A DNA stretch of 64,000 nt from a virus, in the IMG/VR virus record IMGVR_UViG_3300017613_002395; one strand, written 5' to 3'. The position numbers and the translations under genes were made by a program. The notes beneath the pieces are model-generated. The model searched no databases, was not told where the DNA came from, and worked only from the letters and a program-made list of their open reading frames with translations. Positions 30,030-49,241 of this stretch are shown in pieces (within the stretch, counting starts at the first letter, position 1; each line of letters starts with the position of its first letter).

Positions 30030-30797
30030 ATGACTCGAAGCATCAGCAGCCCGAAAGTTAATTTCAAGATGTCGGGCAGTCTGCGAAACACTCTGACCGA
30101 CGATTCCAGTGTGAGTGTTGCTCAGCCAAATTTCAACTACTCCCCAACACTGACTAACGGGGTGAGTGCAAATCAAGTCAATCGGGCATGGCAATCTGAG
30201 GGACGCTCCATTGTTGAAGGTGCGCAGGAAACAATCAACGTCAGTACATTCGACGGACTGGATATTGGGGCTGGCGATGGCATGGATGCGTTGGGTCAGG
30301 CGCTAGATCTCGAAGAGATCGTTGCGATTGTGATTCAAAACGACGGGGCCGTAACTGCTGCCGGCCGGCTGGAAATCATCCCGGCAAACTCCCATGGATG
30401 GGACCCGATTGGCAGCCACACAGTGGCAAACGGTGGGGCCCTCCGGGGCCAGGGTGTGTTGATCAAGGCCCAAGTAGCCGAGGCCGGTTTTGACGTTGCA
30501 CCAGGCACCACCGATCGAATCACAATGAGGGCTGTCGGGGGAGCCGTCACATACTCGATTTACATCTTGGGACGTCATGATGATGGTGAATCGAGCAGCT
30601 CTAGTCAGTCCAGTAGTTCGAGCAGCGAATCGTCCAGTAGTTCGAGCAGTGCCAGCAGTTCGGTCAGCACAAGTAGTATCAGCACAAGCTCGGTCAGCTC
30701 CAGTTCCAGTTCGATCAGCACAAGCAGTTCGTCGAGCAGTCAGAGTGATTTGTCTAGCTCTTCGAGTTCTAGCGAGAGTTCCAGCAGCCTGTCGTAA
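30030..30797 (+). CDS. virion protein with C-terminal Ser-rich tract
   Basis: RBS TAGGAG. ~185-aa beta-rich domain followed by SSSSQSSSSSSESS...SISTSS. Confidence 0.55.
   Translation: MTRSISSPKVNFKMSGSLRNTLTDDSSVSVAQPNFNYSPTLTNGVSANQVNRAWQSEGRSIVEGAQETINVSTFDGLDIGAGDGMDALGQALDLEEIVAIVIQNDGAVTAAGRLEIIPANSHGWDPIGSHTVANGGALRGQGVLIKAQVAEAGFDVAPGTTDRITMRAVGGAVTYSIYILGRHDDGESSSSSQSSSSSSESSSSSSSASSSVSTSSISTSSVSSSSSSISTSSSSSSQSDLSSSSSSSESSSSLS
30591..30794 (+). repeat. Ser-rich tract S3
   Basis: Contains the shared agttcgatcagcacaagc core. Confidence 0.9.
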
Positions 30798-34755: not shown

Positions 34756-35667
34756 ATGAATGATCCTAGTGAATGGCGGCTGTCCACACCGTGGAACAAC
34801 ATACCATTTCGGGTGGTTTCACGTCAGGGCGTCTTCTCGCCTGAAGAGGCGTCCGCAACTGAGCGGTATATCATTCCAGCCAACAGGCTGCTTGATTTTG
34901 TTCTTGAGGGATTCCCCCTGCCCCTGCAGTTTGGCAATTCGCTGATTTATCCCCAGCCCCACACCTTGCCTGGGCTGGGCACCATGAGACCAATGCGAAT
35001 CAAGTGGAAGGCCCAGGTGGATGGCAAGCCGGTAGATCCGTTTGGCTCTGATCCTGATGCCCCTGATGGCACTTACGGGGAAAATGTGATAGTAGATGTT
35101 GAATTCGCAACGTCACCGGAAAATGATGAGGAACAAGATCCCAATGACCCTTTCACATTTCTAGAAGCATCGATCAATGCATCTGGGGTGTTTCTGGCGG
35201 CACCAATAGGAAACACAGCTAAGTGGGTTGATCCCGATTCGGGTGATAAGGTAAATATCCAGCAGATGAACATACCTTACGCTGTGCCGGAATACATGGT
35301 TGAGTGGAGTGTGAAGTGGCCCCGGATTCCGTTTTCGTTCTGGTCTGATGAGATCATGGATCGTTTGCGGGACAAGCTGGGCCATGTGAACGACGACAGC
35401 ATGTCGTTCTTTCACGATGCACCTGCTAATACCGTTCTGTTTTTGGGATTTTCAGCTAATCAAAGCTTCACCTGGCGACCGGGCAAGTCGGGTCAGCCAC
35501 CGATGAATTTGAGCATGAGTTTTCAGGAGAAAAACTTCAAGGATAAGGATGGTGTTCAGGTCACCCACCAGCATTTTTACAAGCCCGGCATCGGTTGGCG
35601 GGAGCTTCTGATTGATGATGAGAACGTATACCCGTCTGCAGATCTGGGTGGCATTTGGGAAGCGTGA
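34756..35667 (+). CDS. distal tail / minor tail protein
   Basis: 303 aa, immediately after the tape measure gene. Call based on position only. Confidence 0.4.
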   Translation: MNDPSEWRLSTPWNNIPFRVVSRQGVFSPEEASATERYIIPANRLLDFVLEGFPLPLQFGNSLIYPQPHTLPGLGTMRPMRIKWKAQVDGKPVDPFGSDPDAPDGTYGENVIVDVEFATSPENDEEQDPNDPFTFLEASINASGVFLAAPIGNTAKWVDPDSGDKVNIQQMNIPYAVPEYMVEWSVKWPRIPFSFWSDEIMDRLRDKLGHVNDDSMSFFHDAPANTVLFLGFSANQSFTWRPGKSGQPPMNLSMSFQEKNFKDKDGVQVTHQHFYKPGIGWRELLIDDENVYPSADLGGIWEA

Positions 35668-37388
35668 TGAGAGAGAAGATCCCACACAAACGAGCCGGCG
35701 ATAAGTTATCAGCCCGAGGCATGAACAATCGGGCTGATGTGCTAAATCGGTTGTCTGGCTTGAGTATGGGATCTTTTGCCAATCTGCACCATGGCCACTC
35801 AAGTATCTCAGTGTCGGGCATTCCGCCTGGGCATATTTACCCGATGGAGATTACGGATGTAGAGATTAATAGTTCGGATTCGACAGGATCTGGATTGTAC
35901 CTGGCCAGGATTCGGTGTTACGATCCTACGACCGATTCATGGGTTCTGTTGGGTGAAGCCGGGGAAGGTGGAGATGTTCTGGATGATGACTGGGAATTAG
36001 ATTCTCGGGCACTGGGGGATAGGAGTGGCCTTGAGACGGGTGATTTGGTGGCGTGTTTCTGGGATGGCCAACGGGAGATGTTCATCCCCATCCTTGCCGA
36101 CTTTGGCCCGCCTCTGATTGATGTCTCTGCCAGGGAAACTACTATTCAGGGCGTCTCTACTGGCACTGCTGCTATCTGGTTTGCGCTTGAGTTGACGTTA
36201 GATAATGGAAACACCTGGCACATCGTCAACGACCGTACTTATAAGATAAACACAGAGAAGGACTTTGAGGAGTTTGACACCACGGCTGAATGCTCGGCTT
36301 CCGGTTGTGGCATTTACACGTTCCGAGTGCGGAATGATGATAATAACAATCCAAGCATGGTGCGGGTGGTTGTTAGTAACCACATGCTAGATTGTTTTGA
36401 GATAACAGATTGTCGGGTTGGGCTGAGAATGGAGGCGAAGGATCGGGGCGGCATTGCCCATACACAGGGCCGGTTTATGCCCTCTGCTGAAAGTACAATC
36501 ATCGGAACGTCAGCGGGTTGGGATTACGAGGCTAAGATCAACAATGGAGATGGCGGCAAAGTCAAATTCCAATGCAATGATGACTATGGCGAATACATAG
36601 AAATCATCACACCCGACAAGACTGACTGGTGTACGATTGAAGCCGAATTGGTTGTGGTGGCCAGTTATGTCGAGTCCGAATCATCGTCGTCCATTTCAAC
36701 ATCATCCCAGGGCGAATCCTCCATCTCAACATCGTCGCCCTCGTCTATGAGTAGTGCATCCAGTGCATCCAGTGCGTCCAGTGCATCGTCGACTTCTTCA
36801 ACATCGTTGACTTCAGCGTCTTCCATTTCCACGTCTTCCATTTCCACATCCAGCTCTTCCATCTCAACATCCAGCTCGTCCATTTCAACATCGTCCATTT
36901 CCACTTCGAGCAGTGGTGATTGTGTTGATAAAACTTATGGACCCGATACCAATTTGGGGAGTTGGGTCTCCCAGGGCGAGTTTTGCCATGGACCAGCCGG
37001 CTGTTCCGGCAGCATAAGTGGTGGTGTTGCTCGACTAGATACAGTTGATGCAGGCGATTATTCGTTCAGCAAGACATTGGCCGGGCTGCAGGCCGATCGA
37101 TCTTACTACGTGCGTATATCGGCAAAAACTGATGAGGAGGCTGATGCCCCACAAAACTCATTAACAGCATCGATTACAGATGCAGAGTCCACTGTGCTGT
37201 CAATTTCAGTGGATCAGACAGCAGATGGTCCAATGACGCTGCCTACGGTGAAGACGGCAGAGGGCTGGCTCAAAACGGATAACCTTGGCAATTTCACTCT
37301 GCAGGGATCGGCCAATGCTGCTGAGGATTCTCTTGCCAGTCAGCATTGCTTAGTGTACAAAATTGAGGCGTTTTGTGAACAACAGTAG
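35667..37388 (+). CDS. tail tip/fibre-like protein with internal Ser-rich tract and C-terminal CBM-like domain
   Basis: 573 aa. Its ATG overlaps the previous stop. The Ser tract separates two beta-rich domains. Confidence 0.5.
   Translation: MREKIPHKRAGDKLSARGMNNRADVLNRLSGLSMGSFANLHHGHSSISVSGIPPGHIYPMEITDVEINSSDSTGSGLYLARIRCYDPTTDSWVLLGEAGEGGDVLDDDWELDSRALGDRSGLETGDLVACFWDGQREMFIPILADFGPPLIDVSARETTIQGVSTGTAAIWFALELTLDNGNTWHIVNDRTYKINTEKDFEEFDTTAECSASGCGIYTFRVRNDDNNNPSMVRVVVSNHMLDCFEITDCRVGLRMEAKDRGGIAHTQGRFMPSAESTIIGTSAGWDYEAKINNGDGGKVKFQCNDDYGEYIEIITPDKTDWCTIEAELVVVASYVESESSSSISTSSQGESSISTSSPSSMSSASSASSASSASSTSSTSLTSASSISTSSISTSSSSISTSSSSISTSSISTSSSGDCVDKTYGPDTNLGSWVSQGEFCHGPAGCSGSISGGVARLDTVDAGDYSFSKTLAGLQADRSYYVRISAKTDEEADAPQNSLTASITDAESTVLSISVDQTADGPMTLPTVKTAEGWLKTDNLGNFTLQGSANAAEDSLASQHCLVYKIEAFCEQQ
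36672..36914 (+). repeat. Ser-rich tract S4
   Basis: SSSSISTSS...SSISTSSISTSSSSISTSS. Same peptide motif as S1-S3, but different codons (tccatttcaaca). Confidence 0.9.
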
Positions 37389-37407: not shown

Positions 37408-38496
37408 ATGGATTGTGTTTATCTCGGATCAAACATATCTGGCACTATTCACAAATGCCTGTTGTACGAGACCTGTGATGTGGAAAAAACAACCCCTGAC
37501 CATGCTTCCTGTGTGGCGTGCCAAGACAAGTTGGGTATTGATGACAAAGACTTTGCAGCCAAGTGGGTTGATCCCCTTGAGGTTTGTGATCGATCAAAAC
37601 TGAAGACCGATAGCCTGCGGAATGTGCTGGTTGGTGGGGACGCGTTTTTGGTTTGTGGTGGCCCTTCCATCAACGATATGCCCCTCCATCTATTGAAGCA
37701 GCGGGGCGTGTGGATCATGGCTGTGAACAATGTAGCAGCCCATCATAGAATCAGGCCACAAGCATTTGTGTGTTCTGATCCCCCCATGAAGTTCTCAAAT
37801 ACTATCTGGGATGATCCTGGTGTCATGAAGTTCGTCCCCACACCCAAGATGTCGGGCCGGCGAGCCAAGTTGCGTCGGAAGATTGGTAAGGTGTTCAAGG
37901 AATCCGACCGTCGTGTTTGTGATTGCCCCAATGTTTGGGGATTCAAGCGGGAGTCATATCTGGTGCCGAATGACGAATTCTTCATGGCTGCAGGGGCTAT
38001 GTGGGGCAATCAGGATGCAGGTGTGGATCGGACGCATGAGAAGAAAACCGTCTGTACTTTCCTGTTGGGGTTGCGGTTGTTGTATTATATGGGTGCAAGA
38101 AGAATCTTTTTGTTGGGGGTGGATTTTCGGATGACCCCAAATTATGGATATGGGTTTGGGCAAAAGAGAACGCCTGGAGCTTCGACTTCCAACAACAGAC
38201 ATTTCGTCGTGGTGAACGATTGGCTTTGTCGATTACAGCAAGGAGGCACATTTGATCGGTTTGGTTTGGAGATATTCAACTGCTTTGAGCGGAGCAGTTT
38301 AAGGGCATTTCCCTATGTGCCCCTCGGCTTTGCTGTGGAGGGTGCTTGCAACCGTGTTGAGCAAAGGCCCGATTTAGAGGGCTGGTACGAAAAGGCAAAT
38401 TGCCCTGAGTGCAATTCATGGAACGTGAGATTTGGGGATGAATGTGAATGCTTGAAGTGCCATCACAAATGGAACCCATACGATACTGACGATTAA
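37408..38496 (+). CDS. Maf/DUF115 (MptE-like) family glycosyltransferase candidate with C-terminal zinc ribbon
   Basis: GGDAFLVCGGPSINDMPLHLLKQRGVWIMAVNNVAAHHRIRPQAFVCSDP matches the DUF115 signature. C-terminal CPECNS...CLKCHH. Confidence 0.5.
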   Translation: MDCVYLGSNISGTIHKCLLYETCDVEKTTPDHASCVACQDKLGIDDKDFAAKWVDPLEVCDRSKLKTDSLRNVLVGGDAFLVCGGPSINDMPLHLLKQRGVWIMAVNNVAAHHRIRPQAFVCSDPPMKFSNTIWDDPGVMKFVPTPKMSGRRAKLRRKIGKVFKESDRRVCDCPNVWGFKRESYLVPNDEFFMAAGAMWGNQDAGVDRTHEKKTVCTFLLGLRLLYYMGARRIFLLGVDFRMTPNYGYGFGQKRTPGASTSNNRHFVVVNDWLCRLQQGGTFDRFGLEIFNCFERSSLRAFPYVPLGFAVEGACNRVEQRPDLEGWYEKANCPECNSWNVRFGDECECLKCHHKWNPYDTDD

Positions 38497-38505
38497 GGAG
38501 ATGTC

Positions 38506-38922
38506 ATGTCGTTTCACCCGTACTGGGAGGACAAATGCTGGGGGCGTGTTCATCATGTGTTTGCCTCCCGCCATGCAGCCGTCAGTCATTTGAAGCTCGA
38601 CGAGGGGTTTCGGTGCAGTATGCATCGTCACGATGAACGAGCTAATCAATTCTGTGTACATGAGGGAGCTGTTGTAATTGAGGTGTGGGATTCCGTTACT
38701 GCTGCGAAGACGATGCACCTGCTCCATCCTGGCGACGTGTTTGTGGTTCCCAGTGGGATTTGGCATCGATTCCGTGTGCTTCAAAATGGCACGATGACGG
38801 AGGTCTATTGGCCCGACCAGGGAGGAGTCGTTCGCATCGCAGATATTGAGCGTGAGGATAATGGTGGGGAGGACAATCTCCAAGAATTGAAGCAAGAGCT
38901 GTCCGATGTTGGTTTGCTTTGA
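38506..38922 (+). CDS. cupin-domain protein (sugar isomerase/epimerase-like)
   Basis: WGRVHHV...LKLDEGFRCSMHRHDERANQFCVHEGAVVIEVWD...PGDVFVVPSGIWHRF. Confidence 0.55.
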   Translation: MSFHPYWEDKCWGRVHHVFASRHAAVSHLKLDEGFRCSMHRHDERANQFCVHEGAVVIEVWDSVTAAKTMHLLHPGDVFVVPSGIWHRFRVLQNGTMTEVYWPDQGGVVRIADIEREDNGGEDNLQELKQELSDVGLL

Positions 38923-38930
38923 GGAGAACA

Positions 38931-39740
38931 ATGGGCATACCTGATTACACGTTGGTCTGTGGCGTTGATGCTTATCATCTGCGGCAGTTGCTGTGGGTGA
39001 TTGCTACCTGGAAAAAGCACAAACCGAGCATGCTGGAAAGGCCTGCTATTGTCTTTTTTGACAGGGATGATTTGGAGTGCCGGGAAGTCAGTCGCCTGCT
39101 CAGACCTTATATGTCTGATTTGTTGTGCGTAGCTTGGCCATTAGATGGTGTGACTTATTCGGGAGGAAACGATAAATGGACAAACCCGCAGCGGTATAAG
39201 ATGCTTGCTGGTTTTGTCCATGTGGCTGCTTCGTTGGTGAGCACCAAGTATTGGCTCAAGATGGATACCGATGTGGTGGCAAAAGACCGCGATGATTGGA
39301 TAGACCCCAATTGGTTCGTCGATGATCCAGCAATCGTTTCGCACCGCTGGACTTTTACGAGACCGGCCAACCAACTAGAAGTACTGGACCAGTGGGTCGA
39401 GGACAACAAGAAGCATCTGCCAGAGTTTGATGGGCACCCACCCCTCGATATGCATCCCAAGCCTGGTGCAGATCGGATTGGGCACAGGAGAATTATTTCT
39501 TGGTGTGCGTTCTTCCGTCAGGATTACACGGCAGAGTGCGCTGCTATGGCAAATCGTGTTTGTGGCTGTGCTCAGCTTCCGGTCCCCAGCCAGGATGGCT
39601 ATATGTGGTATGTTGCTAAGCGGAGGCGGGAGGACATCCGCCTGACCAACATGAAGAGTCGGGGATGGCAGCAGTGGCACACCAACAAGAATATTCGCAA
39701 GTCTGTACTTGAATCGTTAGGAGAACCTGCTGATGGCTAG
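38931..39740 (+). CDS. GT-A-type glycosyltransferase candidate
   Basis: ATG after GAGGAGAACA. DxD-like KYWLKMDTDVVAKD. Confidence 0.35.
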   Translation: MGIPDYTLVCGVDAYHLRQLLWVIATWKKHKPSMLERPAIVFFDRDDLECREVSRLLRPYMSDLLCVAWPLDGVTYSGGNDKWTNPQRYKMLAGFVHVAASLVSTKYWLKMDTDVVAKDRDDWIDPNWFVDDPAIVSHRWTFTRPANQLEVLDQWVEDNKKHLPEFDGHPPLDMHPKPGADRIGHRRIISWCAFFRQDYTAECAAMANRVCGCAQLPVPSQDGYMWYVAKRRREDIRLTNMKSRGWQQWHTNKNIRKSVLESLGEPADG

Positions 39741-40458
39741 TCTATTGCTGAGAAGGAGCGGTGTGGCCGTTGGGCAAATAGCTGAGAGGCTCAATAATTG
39801 GCAAGCCGATCTGATGGTGCAAGTGGGTGTTGGCCTGCATCACGAAGAGATGGAGGTATTGAAGCACGAGTGGCCCGACATGCTCGTCCATGGTTTTGAG
39901 GCACACCCGGATATTGCTAAGTCAGTCCGCAAAACATATCCGGGCACCATTCATTCTGTTGCATTGAGAGATTCCGTAGGAAGTGCCCCCTTGTTTGTCA
40001 AACGCAGGCACAAGGATGGATCGTCCCTGTTTCCGCATCACATCCGAGGCGACGAGAAGTACCGCAGTTTCATGGTGGATTGCTCAACTCTGGATAGTTA
40101 CCAGCAAGAGGTCTACTACGATTACGATCCATTGCCCAAGCGGGTGCTGCTTTGGTTGGATTGTGAGGGCAGTGAACTGAATGTTTTGCGGGGTGGCTGG
40201 AATTTCTTATCCCATGTGGATGTGGTTAATGTTGAGATGACCGCAAAGCCACCAGGGGATGGGTGGTGTGATCCTGTCGAGGTTCACGATTTGTTGAGGA
40301 AGCGTGGGTTTTGGTTGCAGTGGATACATACACAACGAAATGTCAACGGGCAGTCTGATCTGGTCTACGTGCAAAGCCAGTTGTTCAACCCCGACTATTG
40401 TTGTTGCCCTGTGTCGATAAAGGAGTGGAGAAGGTCAACATGTCCGGAACCCAAGTAA
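39733..40458 (+). CDS. FkbM-family methyltransferase
   Basis: VQVGVGLHHEEMEVL...HGFEAHPD...LLWLDCEGSELNVLRGG. Confidence 0.55.
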   Translation: MASLLLRRSGVAVGQIAERLNNWQADLMVQVGVGLHHEEMEVLKHEWPDMLVHGFEAHPDIAKSVRKTYPGTIHSVALRDSVGSAPLFVKRRHKDGSSLFPHHIRGDEKYRSFMVDCSTLDSYQQEVYYDYDPLPKRVLLWLDCEGSELNVLRGGWNFLSHVDVVNVEMTAKPPGDGWCDPVEVHDLLRKRGFWLQWIHTQRNVNGQSDLVYVQSQLFNPDYCCCPVSIKEWRRSTCPEPK

Positions 40459-41333
40459 CATATCTGATTTCTGGTCCAGCCCATCTGCCTTATCTTGTAT
40501 GCTCACTGCACACATTGAGGCAGCACTATTTTGGCAATGTAGAGGTCTTTTCCTGGCCTGAATCAGTCCAATACGTGGAGAGGATTGCTAAAGACCCCAG
40601 ATTGGGTGTTGTTTGCCATGAGAGAGAACCCGTCTTGCGAAAAAGAGATGGAGTTGGGGGTAACAGCCAATTCATTGACAAGATCCGGACGACGATGGGA
40701 TTGGCCGGCAGTATTGGGAAAGATGGCGTGTCGCTTTATCTCGATGCTGACACGACAATTCATGGCAATTTAATGCCGCTGATCAATACGGCATCCAACC
40801 GGGGATTTGTGGCAACACAGTGGAACGATTGGAGCACGGCCGGCTGCAAAGTGAGACGTCGCATCAAGGCATTGCTCGATGTGGAAGGGGTGCCATCCTT
40901 TGAGGTTGCCAGTGCTCTGTCGTATGCGTGGCCTAGTGTGAATGGGGGAGTGTGGGCAGCAAAGCCAGGCTCCCCTGTGCTGCCCCTATGGCTGGAGTGG
41001 ACGCTGGCGTGTGGCTCGATGTTTATCTCTGATGAGCGTGTGCTTCATTTGATGGCCCCTCATTTCCCAGAAGATGTCGGGATTATTGGATCAAATGGAA
41101 TCTACAATTCCAGTCCCATCTACAGATCGAAATTGATCGATGACGACGACGTGGTTGTCTGGCATTACCACGGGGACTGCAACGTGAGGCCGAAAAAGTC
41201 TATGAGGGCTGTTGAGCTGTGGTGGCCCATTTACCAAGAGTGCCTGGAGTCGAATGTTGGTGGATTGGCTGAATGGCGGGGCGAGATTCACAATCGCCAC
41301 CTTGATAAGCTGGAGAAAGAGTTGGCAGCATGA
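40440..41333 (+). CDS. GT8-like nucleotide-sugar glycosyltransferase
   Basis: VSLYLDADTTIHGNLMPL (DxD). Internal ATG of ORF 40398..41333. Confidence 0.5.
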   Translation: MSGTQVTYLISGPAHLPYLVCSLHTLRQHYFGNVEVFSWPESVQYVERIAKDPRLGVVCHEREPVLRKRDGVGGNSQFIDKIRTTMGLAGSIGKDGVSLYLDADTTIHGNLMPLINTASNRGFVATQWNDWSTAGCKVRRRIKALLDVEGVPSFEVASALSYAWPSVNGGVWAAKPGSPVLPLWLEWTLACGSMFISDERVLHLMAPHFPEDVGIIGSNGIYNSSPIYRSKLIDDDDVVVWHYHGDCNVRPKKSMRAVELWWPIYQECLESNVGGLAEWRGEIHNRHLDKLEKELAA

Positions 41334-42079
41334 AATACATTCGTGTGCTATACAACGAGTGTTTGGCCGAGGGGAGACCAAAACTACTCCGAGAAATCAA
41401 GCGGAATTTTCAGAGTCCCAAGACCAAAAGATGGCGGGGCTTCCATCAGCGTAGAATCCATTATTACACGATGGGCAGAGAAGCCACCAATCTGCTTCGT
41501 GATAATGGAGCACAGCACATCACCCAGGTCTGTGATGAGCCCATGTTGAAAAGATCAGGTGGGGTATTTTCCTGGAACAAACTATACCTGATCCGCGAGG
41601 CCGTGAGGGAGCATGGGGAAGTCATCTACACAGACCTTGATATCTTGCCAAGACCCGGATTTGATCCCGATAGGTTGTGGGATGAGGTTCGGTCCCATCC
41701 AGGGATGGGGCGGGTTCTTCAGATGCCCATCATCTCATACAGGAGACACAGTGGGTATTTTTGGTTTCGCCCCCGCCTGGGTAGTGGATGGGATGCTGTG
41801 ACCCCCTGTGTTGGGTTCTATGGCTGCTTCATCTATGTGACGAGTGAGAAGCTGCTGGATTGCTTCTTCGATGATTACGAGGAAATGATGGATCGTTTCA
41901 ATGGGAGAAGAACGGGGGACGAGCAGCTCATCACCTACAGCTTAGATAAGCGGTTCGGTCCTTTGACCATTCGTCAGATGCACGAGAACTTCAGCCCGAC
42001 GTGTGTATCGCCCAGATACTCGTTTTTGAGACGGAATGCAAACATGGACACATCAAAGTTTGTATTGAGGCACAAATGA
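41330..42079 (+). CDS. glycosyltransferase candidate (DxD)
   Basis: GEVIYTDLDILPRPGF. ATGA junctions on both sides. Confidence 0.35.
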   Translation: MKYIRVLYNECLAEGRPKLLREIKRNFQSPKTKRWRGFHQRRIHYYTMGREATNLLRDNGAQHITQVCDEPMLKRSGGVFSWNKLYLIREAVREHGEVIYTDLDILPRPGFDPDRLWDEVRSHPGMGRVLQMPIISYRRHSGYFWFRPRLGSGWDAVTPCVGFYGCFIYVTSEKLLDCFFDDYEEMMDRFNGRRTGDEQLITYSLDKRFGPLTIRQMHENFSPTCVSPRYSFLRRNANMDTSKFVLRHK

Positions 42080-42759
42080 GCAAAAAAGAACGGATCAAAC
42101 CTTGGGCATGCGATTATCACCGTGGCAAAATAGACGGATCATTTCGGTGCAAGTACTTCGAGATTGGTTTGGGTCGGTCAGGTACTCGAAGTGTTTTTCG
42201 GGCTGTCAAGTTGTTGGGCTTGTCAGCTATGCATGGTACTGGGGGGTGTTTGCAGTGTCTTGACGATTTGGTTTTCAAGATGAAGGTGGACTGTTGGGAC
42301 CTTGATATATACCGAGGCTACGAGTATTCAGGCCACGTTGCATCGGTCCATTGGCAGCAGTTGGCAGAGGCTCGTCCCGATGCAAAATTCATCTTGCCAA
42401 CAAGGGAATTATCTGGTTGGAGCCGTTCTGCCAGAAAGCATCTTCGGACTGTGAGATCTCTTCCACAACGAGCCGAGTTGCTTCACACCAAGCTGTACGG
42501 ATCTCCCTATCCGAAGAAGGTCGATCTGATTGATGGCTACAATCGGCACATCCAGACTGCAATAAAGGAGTTGACACCAACGGGGCGTCTACTTGTGCTA
42601 GATGTATTTTCAATGTCCGATGATTATCTGTGGGGAGAGCTTGCTGGTTTTGTGGGCAGAAAAGCACCACAAGGGGGAACCAAGTTTCCGTGGAAGCAGA
42701 CGGTGGTGAGGGTATATCAACCGAAGAATAGGGTACAGCAGGAGCGTGGACATGAGTAA
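42076..42759 (+). CDS. sulfotransferase (Sulfotransfer_4-like)
   Basis: FEIGLGRSGTRSVFRAVKLLGLSAMHG is a PAPS 5'-phosphosulfate-binding loop context. Confidence 0.55.
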   Translation: MSKKERIKPWACDYHRGKIDGSFRCKYFEIGLGRSGTRSVFRAVKLLGLSAMHGTGGCLQCLDDLVFKMKVDCWDLDIYRGYEYSGHVASVHWQQLAEARPDAKFILPTRELSGWSRSARKHLRTVRSLPQRAELLHTKLYGSPYPKKVDLIDGYNRHIQTAIKELTPTGRLLVLDVFSMSDDYLWGELAGFVGRKAPQGGTKFPWKQTVVRVYQPKNRVQQERGHE

Positions 42760-43315
42760 GGCCATAGGTGGCTTCGACGCCGAAACTGTGAGCAGGCGAG
42801 TGAAAAAGAGGAAAATAAACAAATCTCTTTTGGTTGCTCTAATCAAAACGATTCCCAGTAATGAAACCATCATTGATATGGGGGCTGGGGTAGGTACTTG
42901 TCAGGACGCACTAACGGCTCTTGGATACACGGTCAAATCGGTTGATGGTGGGGAAAACATAGAGGAATTGACTGGTGGCAAAGTGGAGTGGGCGGATCTC
43001 ACCCGTGACTGCAGTCATCTGTACGGCAAATGGGATTGGGGGCTTTTCATTGATGTGGGTGAGCACATACCAGCCGAGTTGGAAGGAAGGCTGTTTGCGG
43101 AAATCTGCCAGATTCCGAAGAAGGGCTTGATCGTATCATGGGGATCACCAGGTCAGCGGGGCAATGGTCATGTCAATTGCAAGACCACCGTCTACATAGC
43201 AAATATGTTTGCTCGTTTTGGATGGGATATTGATGATCTGCTGTCAAAGCGGATTCAGTCCAGGGCCGGCTCCTTTTTCAAACGACGCATCATGGTTTTA
43301 AGGCGTGTTTCATGA
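42752..43315 (+). CDS. class I SAM-dependent methyltransferase
   Basis: Motif I IIDMGAGVGTCQDAL. Confidence 0.6.
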   Translation: MSKAIGGFDAETVSRRVKKRKINKSLLVALIKTIPSNETIIDMGAGVGTCQDALTALGYTVKSVDGGENIEELTGGKVEWADLTRDCSHLYGKWDWGLFIDVGEHIPAELEGRLFAEICQIPKKGLIVSWGSPGQRGNGHVNCKTTVYIANMFARFGWDIDDLLSKRIQSRAGSFFKRRIMVLRRVS

Positions 43316-43974
43316 GTATTGATTTTGATAATCCAAGACAGGTGATTTTTATACACATTCCCCGAACGGCTGGGACATCTATTGAGTTGTGGTTCCAATG
43401 CCACTATCCAACCACACAAAGGTCGGGCCCTCGCAGGTGGAAAAGGGATAGTGCATTCACTACCACACGACACATGTCAACAGTTTCCCTGCTGCGAAGC
43501 AAATGCATCACGAGGGAATGGTGGGACAGCAGTTTCAAGTTTGCTATAGTCCGTAATCCATGGGATAGACTTGTTTCTCTGTACGAGTACCTTCGTGGTT
43601 TCCGGTTGCGGCGTGCAAATAGAAGATCAAACAAGGTGTTACATCGGTTTAAGGACTTCGCAAGCAATATATCGTCTGGGAGTTCCAGTTTTGTAAAACC
43701 TCTGGGGCTTCGGAATGTGCGTGTGTTTTCCCAGGTGCAGCCTCAAGTTGAATGGCTTCGGGAGGAACTGGATTTTATCGGTCGGTATGAGCAGTTGGAT
43801 AAAAGCTGGGATAAAGTACTGGAGCAAATCGGCTCTGTGCCTTGTCCAATACCACACAAGCACAACAACAAACGTCGCCGGAAAGATTACCGTACCTATT
43901 ACACGGATGATCTGGCTGAGAAGGTGGGTGAGTACTATTCGGAGGACATCGAGCGGTTTGGTTACAAATTCTGA
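43312..43974 (+). CDS. sulfotransferase family 2 (carbohydrate sulfotransferase-like)
   Basis: FIHIPRTAGTSI (5'-PSB), VRNPWDRLVSLYEY (3'-PB), and a C-terminal YYSEDIERFGYKF. Confidence 0.75.
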   Translation: MSIDFDNPRQVIFIHIPRTAGTSIELWFQCHYPTTQRSGPRRWKRDSAFTTTRHMSTVSLLRSKCITREWWDSSFKFAIVRNPWDRLVSLYEYLRGFRLRRANRRSNKVLHRFKDFASNISSGSSSFVKPLGLRNVRVFSQVQPQVEWLREELDFIGRYEQLDKSWDKVLEQIGSVPCPIPHKHNNKRRRKDYRTYYTDDLAEKVGEYYSEDIERFGYKF

Positions 43975-43982
43975 GGTGGAAC

Positions 43983-44534
43983 ATGCCCAATTACATACCC
44001 AAGCGACTGTTTAGAATCATTGATAGTGTTCTCGGGGACGATTTTGTTGTTGGTGCAGAGGTGGGTGTGGAGAGGGGACGAACTAGTCGACGGCTACTGT
44101 TGAGGTATCCGAAGCTGCACATGGTGCTTGTTGATTTGTGGGAGCAGGGTGATGGGGGAGGCACCACGAGCAAATCTAAGAAGCAGCTGATGGCTTGTCA
44201 TCAGGAAGCCCTGGACAACATGCGGGGATTCGAGCCCAGCCGTTGGTCCGTACTGCAGGGCGTGAGCTGGGAGATGGCAAACCAGATCAAGGACGGGTCG
44301 CTGGATTTGGTGTTTATCGATGCATCCCATACCTACGAAGATGTCACGAGGGATCTTCGTGCCTGGTACAATAAGGTCAGGAGTGGGGGTGTTGTGTCTG
44401 GGCATGATTATTTGGGTCGCTGGGAGCCCGTGCCTGGACTGGTCAAGAAGGCCGTTGATGAGTTTGCTGTTGAGTACGGCTATCAGGTGGAATACAAGCA
44501 TCGTGCAGACATTTGGTGGTTTCAGAAGCACTGA
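43983..44534 (+). CDS. class I SAM-dependent methyltransferase (Methyltransf_24/CmcI-like)
   Basis: VVGAEVGVERGRTS...LDLVFIDASHTYEDVTRDLRAWYNKVRSGGVVSGHDY. Confidence 0.6.
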   Translation: MPNYIPKRLFRIIDSVLGDDFVVGAEVGVERGRTSRRLLLRYPKLHMVLVDLWEQGDGGGTTSKSKKQLMACHQEALDNMRGFEPSRWSVLQGVSWEMANQIKDGSLDLVFIDASHTYEDVTRDLRAWYNKVRSGGVVSGHDYLGRWEPVPGLVKKAVDEFAVEYGYQVEYKHRADIWWFQKH

Positions 44535-44558
44535 TTGTTGGGGAACAGGAGAACAACA

Positions 44559-45101
44559 GTGATCGATTATGGTCATTTTCAATTTGCATGTCCCCCTTGT
44601 GTAGGAGGCCGCTGGTTCCAGGGGGTGATGGCAGATTATGCAGAGAGATTTCACTTCGGGTTCAATAGCCGGCGACAGGCTCGTCCCGTGTTCCCAGACC
44701 GAAAAGGCCCCAACACCTTGCGGGTCTCATTGGTTAGCCATCCCGTTGATTGGCTTCTGAGATACCATGCTGCTGCCTCGTCAGGATTGCCGTTTGATGA
44801 CGTTTTTGGTGAACCCGTTCCCAAGGAATTCAACACATTTGCCTGCGAGTTCCTTTTTGAAAAAGCAGGTAGAATTGGTCGGATGTTTGCTGAATACGAT
44901 GCCGATGTTGTGTGGCGGTTGGAAGATTTGCCCCATGCCCTGTTTGAATTTATGAGGACGTTGGGGATGGAGCCTCCCCCAAGAGTTGCTGACAGCCCAG
45001 GGTTTATTGAAGCTGCCTCACCTGCGTTGCACAACCATCAGACCCGACGCATGCTGATGAAAGCCGAAGAGGGGTTTTGTGAACGGTACGAGTACTATTG
45101 A
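44559..45101 (+). CDS. hypothetical protein (possibly a degenerate sulfotransferase)
   Basis: GTG after AGGAGAACAACA. LVSHPVDWLLRYH weakly resembles a 3'-PB motif. Confidence 0.25.
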   Translation: MIDYGHFQFACPPCVGGRWFQGVMADYAERFHFGFNSRRQARPVFPDRKGPNTLRVSLVSHPVDWLLRYHAAASSGLPFDDVFGEPVPKEFNTFACEFLFEKAGRIGRMFAEYDADVVWRLEDLPHALFEFMRTLGMEPPPRVADSPGFIEAASPALHNHQTRRMLMKAEEGFCERYEYY

Positions 45102-45113
45102 GGAGAACAAGTC

Positions 45114-45848
45114 ATGAGCAAAACAATCGCAATCATACCTGCCAGGTTGGGCAGCAGCCGTCTGAGAAATAAGCCCCTGCTCATGTTTGGTGGACGCACT
45201 CTACTTGAATGGACCTACATTCAGGCTCGTGCGGCTGAAGTTGATAATGTGCTGGTCACGTCCCCTGATAAAGCCGTGTGTGAGAAATGCCGAGATTTGG
45301 GCATTCCTTGGTTTCCGTCTAGCATTGATTGCCAATCTGGAACACACAGATGCCTCGAAGTCTATGATCGGATGAGGGGCACTAGTAAGGATGATATAGT
45401 GATCAACTGGCAGTGTGATGAGCCACTACTTCATTCCACCTATGTTGATCAAGCCATCAAACGCATCAAATCGGATTACGATAAGAGCATTCACACATTC
45501 GTGAGCAATTTGACTGGGGATGGACTTGATAATCCGGACGTTGTCAAAGTGGCTGTGCGAATGCGTGATTCATGGACGGCATCTTGTTTTTGGTTCACCA
45601 GAGCCCCCATAGCTCGACCATTGGTCCATTGTGGTGTTTACGTGTTCCCTGCAAAGGAGCTGTATAAATACGGATCAGAGGATCTTAGTGACAATGCAAG
45701 GGCCGAATCGTTGGAGCAATTGACCTGGATTGAAAACGGAGCAGTCATTCGGGCGCTGCTTTTGCCCATGCCCCCACTATCAATCAATTCCCCAGAAGAT
45801 GCCATCAATTTTGTTTGTGTGTTACAAGGGGCCCCCGATGCAAATTGA
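45114..45848 (+). CDS. KdsB/NeuA-type acylneuraminate/KDO cytidylyltransferase (CMP-sugar synthetase)
   Basis: KTIAIIPARLGSSRLRNKPLLMFGGRTLLEWTY...VDNVLVTSPD. Confidence 0.75.
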   Translation: MSKTIAIIPARLGSSRLRNKPLLMFGGRTLLEWTYIQARAAEVDNVLVTSPDKAVCEKCRDLGIPWFPSSIDCQSGTHRCLEVYDRMRGTSKDDIVINWQCDEPLLHSTYVDQAIKRIKSDYDKSIHTFVSNLTGDGLDNPDVVKVAVRMRDSWTASCFWFTRAPIARPLVHCGVYVFPAKELYKYGSEDLSDNARAESLEQLTWIENGAVIRALLLPMPPLSINSPEDAINFVCVLQGAPDAN

Positions 45849-46557
45849 GATCATTAGTCACTGCTTGGCAAATGAGAGGCCCCATTATGCAGGGGCTTTG
45901 TGCTATCAGCTGAGTTCCCTGCTGCTCGATACCCCGAAGATGTGTACGGTAAAGGCAACAATCATTACCACATGGGATGATGAGTTGACACAAAACACCT
46001 TCACCTGGTTTATCAAGCACACACCGATTCGGGCCCGGTTAATAGTGCTCCACAAAACTCAATGCACCCGCAGGTCGATCGGCCGGAATAATGCAGCCCT
46101 ATCGTCGACTGGTGATATCGTTTGGTTTGCTGATGTTGATCAAGTCTATCGGGACCGGATATTGGATCGTTTGGCTGATACACCATGGCCACCTGATTCT
46201 GTAATGCTTTTTCCGAAGCAGATCATGATTCATAAGGACCACACAACTGGTCAGGCAGCTACTGACAAGGTCAACCACCAGCCGGCTGTAGTGGATATTG
46301 ATCCAGGTGATTTCAAACCGAAGATTTATCATCGGGCTATTGGCGGAGTGCAAATCGTGCAGGGGGATTTTACCCGTCGCTACGGGTATTTGAACAATCA
46401 TTCTGTCTGGCAGAAGCCCCACGAAAGCGGAAAGCAACTGAAGAATTTTCATGATGATAGACAATACAGGGGCTTTTGTGAGAAGCATGGCATGATCAAG
46501 GGTATTGATCTGCCAGGCATGTATCGGATTCGACACACTTCGAGCAGTTACAAATGA
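45838..46557 (+). CDS. GT2-like glycosyltransferase
   Basis: RRSIGRNNAALSSTGDIVWFADVDQVY. Internal ATG of ORF 45730..46557, overlapping the previous stop. Confidence 0.5.
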   Translation: MQIEIISHCLANERPHYAGALCYQLSSLLLDTPKMCTVKATIITTWDDELTQNTFTWFIKHTPIRARLIVLHKTQCTRRSIGRNNAALSSTGDIVWFADVDQVYRDRILDRLADTPWPPDSVMLFPKQIMIHKDHTTGQAATDKVNHQPAVVDIDPGDFKPKIYHRAIGGVQIVQGDFTRRYGYLNNHSVWQKPHESGKQLKNFHDDRQYRGFCEKHGMIKGIDLPGMYRIRHTSSSYK

Positions 46558-46566
46558 GGTTGTGGT

Positions 46567-47130
46567 ATGACAATTGGCACCAAAACCATCCTGTTTGGCG
46601 TTCATCAATTTGCAATCCATCCGTGGTTTGTGGCCTGGGGGTGGTGGAAATTATATGGCATACCGTGGGACATTCGTCTGTGGATAGCTTTTTTCCTCCA
46701 TGATTTGGGATACATTGGCAAACCAAATCTTGACGGGCCAGAAGGAGAGGAGCATCCTGAATGGGCTGCGGGGGTGATGGGATGGTTTTTCGGCGAGAAG
46801 TGGGGTTTCTTTTGTCGATATCATTCCCGCTTTCTGGCTAAGCGGGATGGTCAATCGTTTTCTCGCCTGTGCGTTGCTGACAAGCTTGCTATTGGTCTTT
46901 ATCCAAGTTGGTTATACCTACCGTTAGCCCGTTTAAGTGGCGAATTAAATGAGTATATGCAAGGTCAGGGAGCCCGCACACCGGCAGGTGAAAGGGGCCC
47001 TGGCTTGTGGTTTCGGGATGTGCAACGGTACTGTACCGAGTGGGCATTTGAGCATGCTGATGGTCGACAAGATACATGGACTGGAACAAAAAGGGATTTG
47101 GCTGAATGTTTGGACAAGGATGTTTTGTAA
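46567..47130 (+). CDS. HD-like phosphohydrolase candidate
   Basis: FFLHDLGYIGKPN...EEHPEWAA...RYHSRF. Confidence 0.3.
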   Translation: MTIGTKTILFGVHQFAIHPWFVAWGWWKLYGIPWDIRLWIAFFLHDLGYIGKPNLDGPEGEEHPEWAAGVMGWFFGEKWGFFCRYHSRFLAKRDGQSFSRLCVADKLAIGLYPSWLYLPLARLSGELNEYMQGQGARTPAGERGPGLWFRDVQRYCTEWAFEHADGRQDTWTGTKRDLAECLDKDVL

Positions 47131-47144
47131 AGCAAAGGAGAGCC

Positions 47145-47834
47145 ATGACCTTGCCCGACTTCTTGATAATTGGAGTGCAGAAAGCCGGCACAGTTGCGGC
47201 AGCGAAGAACCTTTCATTGCACCCCGACATTTACTGTGATTCAAAGGAGCTGCATTTCTTCGACGAGCATTGGAAGCAGCTGGGTTGGTACAAACGCCAA
47301 ATCCAGAGGAGGGCAAAGAGAAGGCCCAGGGCTGAGTTGATTGGTGAAAAGACCCCATCCTACATAATGTATCCAGACAGAATGGCGGAGGTGGTGCCAA
47401 ACGCCCGTCTGGTCTTGCTCTTGCGAAATCCGGTGGAACGTGCAATTTCCCGATGGTGTTCAGCCAGATCGGATCGTATCAACAGACCTGATGCACTTGA
47501 TTTGATGCACCGAGATATGGTGGGGGATTGGGATAAGCTGCTGACCCGTGGGATCTACTACAAGCAGGTGCGGAGGTTGTTTCATTTTTTCGATCGTCAG
47601 CGGGTGTGTATTTGCATCTCCGAGAGGGTGCAGGAAAACATGGCCGGCGAGTACGGTAGGATCATGGGGTTTTTGGGCGTTGATCCCGTACAGGCTGAAT
47701 TCATGCCCCATCATGAGACAAGCGCCAAGATAAGACCACGGCAGGAGACCGTGGATTTTTTGAAGGATTGGTTTTGGCAAAGCAACTATGCACTTTTTGA
47801 AATGCTCGGTTGGGAAGTGCCAGAGTGGGAGTGA
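47145..47834 (+). CDS. sulfotransferase (Sulfotransfer_1/3-like)
   Basis: PDFLIIGVQKAGTVAAAKNLSLHPDI...ELHFFD and LLLRNPVERAISRW. RBS AAGGAGA. Confidence 0.8.
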   Translation: MTLPDFLIIGVQKAGTVAAAKNLSLHPDIYCDSKELHFFDEHWKQLGWYKRQIQRRAKRRPRAELIGEKTPSYIMYPDRMAEVVPNARLVLLLRNPVERAISRWCSARSDRINRPDALDLMHRDMVGDWDKLLTRGIYYKQVRRLFHFFDRQRVCICISERVQENMAGEYGRIMGFLGVDPVQAEFMPHHETSAKIRPRQETVDFLKDWFWQSNYALFEMLGWEVPEWE

Positions 47835-47836
47835 TC

Positions 47837-48571
47837 ATGGCTCGTCTACTTACAGCGAAGAACCTGTTTTTCCTGCACATGCCTCGGACAGGAGGAACCT
47901 GGATCGAGAAGGCTATCACACTCAGTGGTTTTAGATCTATGAGGTGGCTGCAGAAAAAACAGCCAAAATGGATCTGCCTCAAACATGCATTGCTTGCACA
48001 TGCCAATAAGTTTGAGCGGCTGCATATCAACAACATCTTTTCGGTTGTGCGGCATCCCATCCCCTACTACGAATCGACGTGGAAATGGATCAAGGGCGGA
48101 GGGTGTGTGGAAAAGAGGTGGTCGTGGCATCCGACTGCTGTTCCATGGCAGGAGTTTTGCCGATCCGATGATCTAACATTTAACGATTGGGTGTTTTTGA
48201 TGTTGGAGCATCATCCATTGTGGTACACCCGATTAGTTGAGCAGTACATGGGACCGGCCGGCGGTGAGTTTGTTGATTACATCGGCCGAACAGAAACAGT
48301 CTGCGACGATTTTCTCGATGTTGTTCGGTTGTATGGATACGAGGTGGATGAAAAACTGGAGCAGCAGATCCGGGGCATGGGCAAACAGAATGCAAAAGAC
48401 CTGTCGATTGAATGGTCTGCCGATTTGAAAGCCCGTGTATTGTCCTCCGAGAGATTGATGATCGATCGGTTTTATGGTCCCGAGACAATTGGGAGGCGGC
48501 ATTATGCTCAATTGGCTGCGGAGAATGCTTCGGACCTGGCTGCTGGGCCCGAACAACAGCACGAGACTTGA
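47837..48571 (+). CDS. sulfotransferase family 2-like
   Basis: FFLHMPRTGGTWIEKAI and SVVRHPIPYYES. Confidence 0.65.
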   Translation: MARLLTAKNLFFLHMPRTGGTWIEKAITLSGFRSMRWLQKKQPKWICLKHALLAHANKFERLHINNIFSVVRHPIPYYESTWKWIKGGGCVEKRWSWHPTAVPWQEFCRSDDLTFNDWVFLMLEHHPLWYTRLVEQYMGPAGGEFVDYIGRTETVCDDFLDVVRLYGYEVDEKLEQQIRGMGKQNAKDLSIEWSADLKARVLSSERLMIDRFYGPETIGRRHYAQLAAENASDLAAGPEQQHET

Positions 48572-48794
48572 TGTTGTCCTCCGAGACGGCAACGGGGGAT
48601 CATCTGTGGCGACTGTTGTGGTCGAGGGCACCATGGGCCTGCACCTGATTGGGCAGCCGGCAGGCCAGCAGGTGGGTATGCGAATGTTTGCCGAACGGGA
48701 CGCAATCGATAAAAATGACTTCTGGAGGATTTGGCGGCTGTATAATAGGGATGCGGAGTTCAAATGGGCCGATGAGCCAGATAGTAGGTGTTAA
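48504..48794 (+). CDS. hypothetical protein
   Basis: ATG after GGGAGG, inside ORF 48474..48794. Overlaps the previous gene by 68 nt. Confidence 0.4.
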   Translation: MLNWLRRMLRTWLLGPNNSTRLDVVLRDGNGGSSVATVVVEGTMGLHLIGQPAGQQVGMRMFAERDAIDKNDFWRIWRLYNRDAEFKWADEPDSRC

Positions 48795-49028
48795 ATGCTG
48801 CAATTAGCTACAGAAAACGAATTGAGGGACATCATAGGGGGCCGCATCAGGGAACACAGGGCCCGGCTGGGGTGGACGCAGACCGATCTTGCTGGTGCTG
48901 TGGGGGTGCATCAGGTTACGGTTGCCCTATGGGAGGGGGGCCGACAGCTCCCTACTCGTGTAAATGTCGAGTTACTAGCTGAGGCTTTGGGGATTACAAC
49001 CATCAAACTAATCAGCAAATCTGCCTGA
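48795..49028 (+). CDS. XRE/Cro-CI family HTH transcriptional regulator
   Basis: RARLGWTQTDLAGAVGVHQVTVALWEGGRQLP. Confidence 0.8.
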   Translation: MLQLATENELRDIIGGRIREHRARLGWTQTDLAGAVGVHQVTVALWEGGRQLPTRVNVELLAEALGITTIKLISKSA

Positions 49029-49034
49029 TAAATA

Positions 49035-49061
49035 CCCCGAATCCTGGAATTCGGGGTTTTT
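49035..49061 (+). terminator. intrinsic terminator
   Basis: ccccgaat-cctgga-attcgggg followed by ttttt. Confidence 0.7.
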
Positions 49062-49065
49062 CGTG

Positions 49066-49142
49066 TTGACTTTATAGTGCCAGACGCTATAATAGTAGTA
49101 GATGAGGGAGAGGAAAGGGAACCACGAAAGGAGAACAGCACG
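49066..49142 (+). promoter_or_regulatory. early promoter-operator-leader cassette P1
   Basis: TTGACT (49066-71), TATAAT (49088-93), imperfect palindrome at 49072-49092, AUG at 49102, purine-rich leader ending AAAGGAGAA. Confidence 0.7.
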
Positions 49143-49241
49143 ATGCTCAGTATGGTTTGGATTGTGGTTTTTGCCAGCGTGACCTACGGCTGCTATCGAA
49201 GCCTTTGGGAGATCGGGAGGCTGGAGGGGCATGTGAGATGA
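49143..49241 (+). CDS. 32-aa hydrophobic peptide (MLSMVWIVVFASVTYGCYRSLWEIGRLEGHVR)
   Basis: First SD-led ATG downstream of P1. Below the ORF-track cut-off. Confidence 0.4.
   Translation: MLSMVWIVVFASVTYGCYRSLWEIGRLEGHVR

Follow-up and report, generated by a model that had tools for sequence, protein, structure and literature searches.

The 64,000-nt stretch of viral DNA analysed in this study (IMG/VR virus record IMGVR_UViG_3300017613_002395; hereafter the window) contains, between positions 37408 and 48794, a module of genes lying directly behind the tail genes of a phage. An earlier note, made from the sequence alone, had described these genes as a glycosylation, sulfation and methylation island and had proposed that they may build an acidic O-linked glycan on Ser-rich proteins of the virion. 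The genes of the module (g1 to g17) and the elements closing the unit are the following:

g1, 37408..38496, + strand: protein of the MptE/DUF115 superfamily, rich in Cys at both termini, with a predicted sialyltransferase-like fold
g2, 38506..38922, + strand: small cupin (Cupin_2, 33.7 bits; weak WbuC match), core, in 44 related loci
g3, 38931..39740, + strand: GT-A fold glycosyltransferase (GT) (AlphaFold2 predicted local distance difference test, pLDDT, 96.3; invariant DxD, D113 and D115)
g4, 39733..40458, + strand: FkbM-family S-adenosylmethionine (SAM) methyltransferase (Methyltransf_21, 45 bits), in 30 related loci
g5, 40440..41333, + strand: GT8-like GT-A glycosyltransferase (invariant D102xD104), core
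g6, 41330..42079, + strand: accessory open reading frame (ORF), in only 3 related loci
g7, 42076..42759, + strand: accessory sulfotransferase (Sulfotransfer_4, 59 bits; GRSGTRS), in 4 related loci
g8, 42752..43315, + strand: accessory, probable SAM methyltransferase (Methyltransf_23, 20.7 bits, below the cut-off; GxGxG motif DMGAGVG), in 13 loci
g9, 43312..43974, + strand: accessory sulfotransferase (Sulfotransfer_2, 53 bits; HIPRTAGTS and VRNPWDRLVS), in 7 loci
g10, 43983..44534, + strand: Methyltransf_24 SAM methyltransferase (60.7 bits), core, in 38 loci
g11, 44559..45101, + strand: sulfotransferase-like protein with degenerate motifs for 3'-phosphoadenosine 5'-phosphosulfate (PAPS), core, in 28 loci
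g12, 45114..45848, + strand: KdsB-type cytidylyltransferase, similar to synthetases of cytidine monophosphate (CMP)-activated 3-deoxy-D-manno-octulosonic acid (Kdo), core
g13, 45838..46557, + strand: GT2-like GT-A glycosyltransferase (invariant D99xD101), in 39 loci including Verrucomicrobiota
g14, 46567..47130, + strand: protein with an HD-like invariant His/Asp pattern, without a profile match, with 809 representatives at E<=1e-3
g15, 47145..47834, + strand: accessory carbohydrate-type sulfotransferase (Sulfotransfer_1/3, 52-56 bits; QKAGT and RNPVERAIS)
g16, 47837..48571, + strand: semi-core Sulfotransfer_2-like protein (HMPRTGGTW and VRHPIPYYES), in 11 loci
g17, 48474..48794, + strand: doubtful ORF, overlapping g16 by 98 nt
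48795..49028, + strand: small ORF of 77 aa, the last of the unit (tblastn, 36-45% identity in 5 loci)
49034..49057, + strand: terminator-like hairpin (9-bp stem with 5 GC pairs, T run), the best of the region, closing the late unit

The seventeen co-oriented genes counted in the earlier note were recovered as 17 + strand ORFs filling 37408-48794 with tight junctions (g17 being doubtful), and all nine peptide motifs quoted there were found where they had been placed. After correction of the gene starts to ATG or GTG codons preceded by ribosome-binding sites, adjacent genes overlap by at most 19 nt or stand at most 14 nt apart, with the exception of g17; the start of g11 was reset to the GTG at 44559, which has AGGAG upstream. 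At the 3' end of the late structural transcription unit, 16-18 soluble enzymes are encoded in a single orientation in one compact operon (37408-49028). On the Kyte-Doolittle scale with a 19-mer window, no product among the 18 exceeded 1.25, i.e. no membrane helix was predicted. The position behind the tail genes was also confirmed, the stop codon of the last tail gene (35667-37388) being only 19 nt from g1. No strong promoter or terminator lies between the two or anywhere from the last tail gene until the hairpin at 49034, and near-consensus sigma-70 promoters (49066, 49378 and 50435; 11-12 of 12 positions matching) follow 3' of the hairpin. Because of this gap free of signals, and of the hairpin and then promoters, we assign the module to the distal end of the late structural operon; the hairpin and promoters (49034-50462) represent its border with the next transcription unit. 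These promoters suggest a host with canonical sigma-70 recognition. The G+C content of the module (0.50) does not differ from that of the rest of the window (0.52).

The tailed-phage genes matched in the PHROG database are those for the large terminase (3571-5118), the portal (16365-17966), head morphogenesis (19166-22009), a protease/scaffold-like protein (24923-26614), the major head protein (26697-28352) and the tape measure (32590-34746). Helicase and sigma-factor-like ORFs occur in the downstream part of the window, and nearly all window genes lie on the + strand. Nucleotide and protein searches of 50,697 GenBank phage records found nothing similar to the DNA of the island, g1, the capsid protein or the domain carrying a Ser tail described below, and the only matches of the portal were Gordonia phage portals with 26% identity. 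From these searches, the phage belongs to an undescribed lineage. No paper found in literature searches describes its clade, clusters of sulfotransferase genes in phages, or virion proteins with poly-Ser. Domains for PAPS or Kdo synthesis were not found among the scanned ORFs of the window (the scan covered neither a few small ORFs nor the part of the contig, about 14 kb, that lies beyond the window). This agrees with the earlier statement that PAPS synthesis genes are lacking and fits reliance on a Gram-negative host.

The first gene, g1, had been labelled Maf/DUF115-like. Its match to the Pfam family MptE-like (PF01973) reached 23.3 bits (E 6e-5), covered residues 68-127 only and remained below the cut-off of 34.6. 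The AlphaFold2 model of g1 (pLDDT 91.6) gave HPPK-MptE (8sd5), CstII and GT29 sialyltransferases as the top Foldseek matches in the PDB (probability 0.8-1.0, E 2e-3 to 2e-2). In BFVD it matched MptE-like proteins of uncultured phages and viral sialyltransferases with E down to 1.6e-9, Mimiviridae DUF115 and GT29 proteins being included among the fold matches. The model thus appears to have an MptE/sialyltransferase-like Rossmann fold, the likeness being at the superfamily level only. No flagellin or NeuB/PseI-type matches were found among the ORFs scanned. As its score is sub-threshold and a flagellin or nonulosonate context is missing, g1 is best placed on a distant branch of the superfamily and not with Maf; the superfamily part of the earlier label stands, whereas the Maf part does not. 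The g1 family comprises at least 424 proteins with about 55% identity, and many of these are encoded on contigs 80-106 kb long. We consider g1 a candidate CMP-sugar-dependent, protein-directed glycosyltransferase.

The cytidylyltransferase g12 matched CTP_transf_3 with 103 bits (cut-off 22.6), and 13 of its 13 matches among solved structures are CMP-Kdo synthetases (E 1e-21 to 4e-14). The NCBIfam KdsB models gave 82-154 bits, all below their cut-offs (NF003952, 154 vs 193; TIGR00466, 82 vs 155), and g12 is therefore taken as a diverged KdsB member whose substrate is not certain. In view of these solved homologues and of a PseF model score of only 25 bits, a CMP-Kdo donor is more probable than a nonulosonate one. 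The KdsB half of the former KdsB/NeuA-type assignment is thus retained and the nonulosonate donor is not. KdsB-like genes matched in 7 of the GenBank phage records.

The Ser-rich tracts reported earlier in four proteins proved to be real. With a threshold of at least 15 Ser per 30 residues, exactly four ORFs were found in the six frames of the window, all encoding proteins that we infer to be located in the virion:

10960..13098, + strand: LamG-domain protein with about 400 aa of poly-Ser, candidate acceptor (44% Ser; Laminin_G_3, 43 bits)
23411..24166, + strand: small protein of the head region whose C-terminus is a poly-Ser tail (about 145 aa), candidate acceptor (47% Ser)
30030..30797, + strand: protein of the neck/tail-tube region with a 185-aa conserved domain and C-terminal poly-Ser (residues 187-255), candidate acceptor (27% Ser)
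35667..37388, + strand: product of the last tail gene with internal poly-Ser at about residues 341-420, candidate acceptor (homologues with 25-37% identity in related loci)

The LamG-domain protein matches PHROG 8510, labelled 'virion structural protein' (E 6e-11). In 52 loci, a positional orthologue of the small head-region protein is encoded some 3 kb upstream of capsid. The gene at 30030-30797 stands between the capsid and tape-measure genes and has Ser-tailed positional orthologues in 64 loci of the clade; its 185-aa domain matched only PHROG 22694 (unknown function) and nothing in Pfam or the PDB. Two of the tails in the window run to the C-terminus with nothing downstream to join and are hence not inter-domain linkers. 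All six Ser codons are used to encode the tracts, and the pentapeptide ISTSS, present in 24 copies in the tracts of the window, is encoded by 18 distinct 15-mers, which points to selection at the protein level. In the relatives' Ser tracts, no other 5-mer apart from homopolymers is as common as this pentapeptide (54 copies in 13 of 46 loci; permutations, about 0). Among the loci (designated L with a number) in which the motif recurs are L001, L034, L041, L049 and L073. SSISTSS is a candidate recognition motif to judge from these sequences, and its presence did not correlate with that of the accessory genes (25 loci, Fisher p 0.28-1.0).

The conservation of the module was assessed in about 45 loci fetched around g1 homologues. 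In these viral or metagenome-assembled genome (MAG) loci, the tail genes are followed by a syntenic nine-gene core (g1-g5 and g10-g13). The shared order is capsid, tape measure, two or three tail genes, g1, cupin, g3, FkbM, g5, Methyltransf_24, g11, KdsB-like and g13, often followed by g16. The idea of an island peculiar to this phage has to be abandoned, as the core is syntenic throughout the clade and only g6, g7, g8 and g9 (3-13 loci) and g14 and g15 (this window only) are accessory. The module is a conserved core of a large clade of uncultured phages (contigs of 80-106 kb) that was not found in GenBank phages. Other inserts occur in relatives, such as a DNA_methylase with an extra Sulfotransfer_4 (L086), an RNA_ligase with a Radical_SAM protein (L087) and further methyltransferases; in L088, AdoMet_dc and DUF3326 lie directly upstream of g1.

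A capsid-anchored search gave 118 IMG/VR relatives, of which 80 were kept, all with at least 51% capsid identity. Ser-tailed ORFs occupy two fixed positions relative to the capsid gene (about 3 kb upstream and about 2 kb downstream) in 28 of the 28 capsid-anchored loci with enough flank, and the downstream one was present in 23 of 24 shorter loci. The module and Ser-rich proteins thus co-occur in related phages. Capsid-related phages without the module, the negative control for the Ser tails, were not among the 80 loci, and since 80 of 80 fall within the clade, no contrast for the Ser tails is possible. More divergent phage loci (L074 and L075) and many Verrucomicrobiota MAG loci retain only g1, g3, g5 and g13, which look like the ancestral unit. 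Fusions of g3 and g5 into one ORF of 650-800 aa beside g1 and g13 homologues were observed in Verrucomicrobiota MAGs (L005, L007, L009, L010, L015 and L030), and this fusion ties g3 and g5 functionally.

Cellular g1 homologues provide a further association with Ser tracts. A scan of genome collections yielded 28 loci (372 kb) with g1 homologues of 30-35% identity, nearly all from Verrucomicrobiota MAGs and one from Sedimentisphaerales. Seven ORFs in these 372 kb contain at least 18 Ser per 30 residues, and all seven are on the strand of g1 and end 0.3-3.5 kb upstream of it. In 6 of these 7 loci, g1 is the sole glycosyltransferase family of the module that was detected, which argues that g1 is the enzyme dealing with the Ser tract. 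The two Ser-tract loci examined, L022 and L016, both have cellular neighbours: the former (3205-12326) combines a 2004-aa Ser-tract protein, a g1-like gene and a GT9-Methyltransf_24 fusion with an adjoining cytochrome c peroxidase, the latter (5326-11789) a 1138-aa Ser-tract protein, a g1-like gene and GT25 with an adjoining Ser/Thr kinase. From their gene content, these loci may represent an undescribed bacterial system of Ser-rich protein glycosylation.

Three of the four GT-A candidates named earlier (g3, g5 and g13) are supported by fold or profile and by an invariant DxD, whereas g6 is not. The gene g3 had no match in sequence-profile searches and its family profile matched no PDB sequence; its predicted fold is, however, unambiguously that of a GT-A glycosyltransferase. 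The model had 298 PDB fold matches at E<=1e-3, and the best 50 listed are all GT-A enzymes, including Ktr4/Kre2, UGGT, XXYLT1, COLGALT1, XT1 and glycogenin. Eight of 25 members of the g5 family match Glyco_transf_8 (PF01501) and no other family was matched, the g5 profile also giving weak matches to the DxD region of glycogenin and LgtC. The g13 profile matches TarP (6h1j) with E 3e-5 as well as chondroitin synthase and heparosan synthase, with a weak match to Glycos_transf_2. For g6, no match was found in Pfam, PHROG or NCBIfam, and hhalign comparisons with the g3, g5 and g13 profiles were not significant; it could not be tied to any GT family in either way and is left unassigned. The cupin assignment of g2 held, and from weak MannoseP_isomer matches of its relatives g2 is a possible sugar isomerase or epimerase.

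The prediction of four PAPS sulfotransferases and a degenerate fifth one was borne out. The 5'-phosphosulfate-binding (5'-PSB) loop and the 3'-phosphate-binding (3'-PB) motif are intact in g7, g9, g15 and g16 and not in g11. The Pfam cut-offs for sulfotransferases were passed by g7, g9 and g15, and g16 and g11 are linked to them only by other means. The solved relatives of g7 are PDB 9kf1 and SgdX2 (E 1e-6). The closest solved homologues of g15 are heparan sulfate 3-O-sulfotransferases (3-OSTs; E 2e-22); g15 was not seen in the related loci fetched, and its database homologues are distant (at most 42% identical) and taxonomically scattered, so that they give no clue to the host. The only profile match of g16 was PHROG 3347 (Gal-3-O-sulfotransferase, E 7.5e-6), and hhalign related it to g9 with 95.9% probability (E 6e-9). 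In turn, g11 was related to the g16 family with 99% probability (E 7e-18), and its loop reads PPCVGGRW compared with PRTGGTW in g16, the basic and Thr residues being lost and the Arg of the 3'-PB motif being replaced by Ser (SHPVDW). The g11 and g16 family profiles found nothing among PDB sequences. Sulfotransferases of these kinds are indeed rare in phages: homologues of g15 occur in none and those of g9 in one of the 50,697 GenBank phage records. In an uncultured megaphage of 462 kb (L171, LR756500.1), KdsB-like and Sulfotransfer_2-like ORFs lie 4 kb apart (11238-15687), and neither a g1 homologue nor a Ser tract was found within 15 kb.

The three SAM methyltransferases claimed are partly firm, g4 (FkbM) and g10 being well supported and g8 only weakly. 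Homologues of g10 are fused to a GT9 domain in Verrucomicrobiota loci. The HD-like label of g14 has no profile support; the invariant residues of its family (H13, H18, H45-D46, D56, H63, H86 and D105) nevertheless form an HD-phosphohydrolase-like pattern. Among the fetched loci, g14 was seen solely in this window, which is also the one with most sulfotransferases, and the encoded protein could remove the by-products 3'-phosphoadenosine 5'-phosphate (PAP) or CMP. The ORF g17 had no family match and no homologue in any fetched locus, and is considered doubtful for this reason and because of its overlap with g16.

We propose, with a probability of about 0.55, that the module serves late cytoplasmic O-glycosylation of the poly-Ser tracts of the phage with a Kdo-containing, methylated and sulfated glycan, a function read from sequence and predicted folds. 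Starting from the observed family and fold assignments, operon position, conservation in the clade and co-occurrence with poly-Ser proteins, we infer the donor, acceptor, order of steps and product as follows. Kdo or a close ulosonic acid made by the host would be activated to the CMP-sugar by g12, and g1, the best candidate for recognition of the Ser tract, would transfer the sugar, perhaps straight onto Ser. The glycan would then be extended from host nucleotide sugars by g3, g5 and g13, with g2 possibly interconverting a sugar, O-methylated by g4, g10 and g8, and O-sulfated from host PAPS by g16 and the accessory g7, g9 and g15. The catalytically doubtful g11 may be a non-catalytic sulfotransferase-like partner. 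These reactions would take place before or during particle assembly, alongside the synthesis of particle proteins, and would leave head and tail covered with a dense brush of negatively charged glycan. The earlier idea of the virion as the target is strengthened by the position in the late operon, the absence of membrane helices, the poly-Ser tails throughout the clade and the adjacency of g1 and Ser tracts in cells. A more specific version can be put forward only tentatively: a widespread, hitherto undescribed clade of phages with genomes of about 90 kb, whose hosts are probably Verrucomicrobiota or other members of the Planctomycetes-Verrucomicrobia-Chlamydiae (PVC) group, might build a mucin- or proteoglycan-like coat in which Kdo is attached directly to poly-Ser by a new sialyltransferase-fold enzyme and the glycan is then methylated and sulfated, with a cellular counterpart acting on giant Ser-rich proteins.

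Several points weigh against glycosylation of the poly-Ser tracts. The matches of the g1 model to sialyltransferase folds are weak (template modelling score 0.33-0.52, E >1e-3), and a glycosyltransferase and a pterin kinase are inseparable on this basis. The score of g12 is under every NCBIfam KdsB cut-off, and we know of no precedent for protein-linked Kdo. The poly-Ser stretches can be mere flexible linkers, and the virion location of their proteins is deduced from gene position and one PHROG label. As the module and the Ser tails are both universal within the clade, their co-occurrence there counts as a single evolutionary event. Where the sequence upstream of the cellular g1 homologue exceeded 4 kb, a Ser-tract ORF was present in only 7 of 19 loci.

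The strongest of the alternatives, which we nonetheless regard as rather unlikely, is that the module remodels the host envelope, changing the lipopolysaccharide (LPS) core, O-antigen or capsule during infection by means of methylated and sulfated sugars that include Kdo, and thus blocking superinfection or the sticking of progeny to debris, with the Ser tracts being unrelated linkers or spacers. Phage-encoded modification of host surface glycans is well known, loci for LPS and capsule typically feature Kdo, GT2/GT8/GT9/GT25-type enzymes, FkbM methyltransferases and WbuC-like cupins, and cellular g1 homologues adjoin GT9- and GT25-type genes. However, the module contains no membrane-embedded component, flippase or Gtr-like protein and lies within the late structural operon without a promoter of its own, unlike Gtr-type seroconversion cassettes with their membrane transferase and flippase, and unlike an independent moron; no integrase was found among the ORFs scanned. 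Envelope remodelling would also leave unexplained the Ser tails found throughout the clade and the cellular adjacency of g1 and Ser tracts.

It is improbable that the acceptor is a different one, i.e. a Ser-rich surface protein of the host, a soluble metabolite or a lipid, or that the sulfotransferases act directly on Ser hydroxyls. A cellular acceptor would be in agreement with the Ser-tract proteins of 1138 and 2004 aa beside the g1 family in Verrucomicrobiota, and a small one with the closest solved relatives of g7, which are small-molecule or natural-product sulfotransferases. On the other hand, g15 resembles carbohydrate 3-O-sulfotransferases, and the operon that contains the module itself encodes Ser-tract acceptors of the phage in abundance. 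Decoration of phage DNA bases by the glycosyl- and methyltransferases is very improbable: phage clusters of such genes are able to modify DNA according to the account in PMC12619734, and a DNA_methylase is inserted into the module of one relative, but the module lies in the structural and not the replication operon, has no base-modifying, kinase or nucleotide-metabolism genes, and includes a CMP-Kdo synthetase and PAPS sulfotransferases that have no known role in DNA modification.

Some further features of the window were recorded. A PrmA/Methyltransf_31-like methyltransferase gene (7783-8670) lies in the packaging/head-accessory region upstream of the gene for the LamG poly-Ser protein, and the adjoining ORF (6959-7771) has a weak papain-like match. 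A near-perfect 45-nt tandem repeat (26958-27057, 2.2 copies) within the major head protein gene encodes a Lys/Glu-rich segment. Two small ORFs (53458-53988 and 54170-54616) match Sigma70 region 2 and region 4 separately and could encode a split or phage-type sigma factor. The antisense ORFs of 171-186 aa on the - strand within the module (38416-38931, 44094-44654 and 46099-46620) most likely just shadow the genes of the + strand.

The nearest precedent for the proposed glycosylation of poly-Ser tracts is found in the mycobacteriophages Che8, Corndog and Myrna, in which phage glycosyltransferases modify capsid and tail-tube subunits at their C-terminal extensions (Freeman et al. 2023, as summarized in PMC12363180 and PMC12619734). 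As far as these summaries describe it, that system shares with ours phage-encoded glycosyltransferases, C-terminal acceptors (proposed here), a cytoplasmic reaction and a glycan shield; like it, the phage studied here combines its own glycosyltransferases with Ser-rich extensions on probable particle proteins. The present system differs in a Gram-negative-like host (probably PVC) and in comprising 10-17 genes. Among their products are a CMP-Kdo synthetase, an enzyme with a predicted sialyltransferase fold, methyltransferases and as many as five sulfotransferase-like proteins, and the acceptors would be stretches of 70-400 residues of poly-Ser, some of them carried by small dedicated proteins.

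Other systems are comparable in part. In the Maf-dependent O-glycosylation of flagellin with CMP-pseudaminic or CMP-legionaminic acid, an enzyme of the MptE/DUF115 superfamily stands beside a cytidylyltransferase and the Ser/Thr acceptors are cytoplasmic; here, in contrast, g1 is sub-threshold in Pfam, the cytidylyltransferase is of the KdsB and not the PseF/NeuA type, and neither nonulosonate synthesis genes nor flagellin were seen. In the accessory-Sec loci of Gram-positive bacteria, soluble glycosyltransferases including GT8-type enzymes are encoded beside serine-rich repeat proteins, which are glycosylated stepwise in the cytoplasm. The module resembles these loci in having several soluble glycosyltransferases, a GT8-type one included, near long Ser-rich proteins. 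It differs in being viral, in the absence of a GtfA/GtfB initiator and SecA2/Y2, in other donors, and in the addition of sulfation and methylation. Giant viruses such as chloroviruses and mimiviruses glycosylate particle proteins with their own enzymes of sugar activation and transfer, and Kdo genes occur in CroV; these viruses, however, infect eukaryotes and use other enzymes and acceptors. As for sulfation, g15 aligns with heparan sulfate 3-OSTs and, as in these and rhizobial NodH-type enzymes, keeps the 5'-PSB and 3'-PB motifs, but it is phage-borne and clustered with four other sulfotransferase-like genes.

To our knowledge, virion glycosylation of phages has so far been shown only in mycobacteriophages. 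If the proposed function is true, it would extend to an abundant environmental phage lineage and would involve two chemistries new to phage particles, a CMP-ulosonic acid donor and sulfation. In the more specific version, Kdo linked to protein would be seen for the first time, as would a sulfated glycan on the virions of a bacterial virus. The proposed function would also define a new protein-directed branch of MptE/sialyltransferase enzymes acting on a simple acceptor (poly-Ser, perhaps SSISTSS), and would reveal an unrecognised Ser-rich glycoprotein system in Verrucomicrobiota. The enzymes would be of use in glyco-engineering. For the phages themselves, a polyanionic brush would affect adsorption, colloidal behaviour, interactions with mucus and polysaccharides, and grazing or immune recognition.

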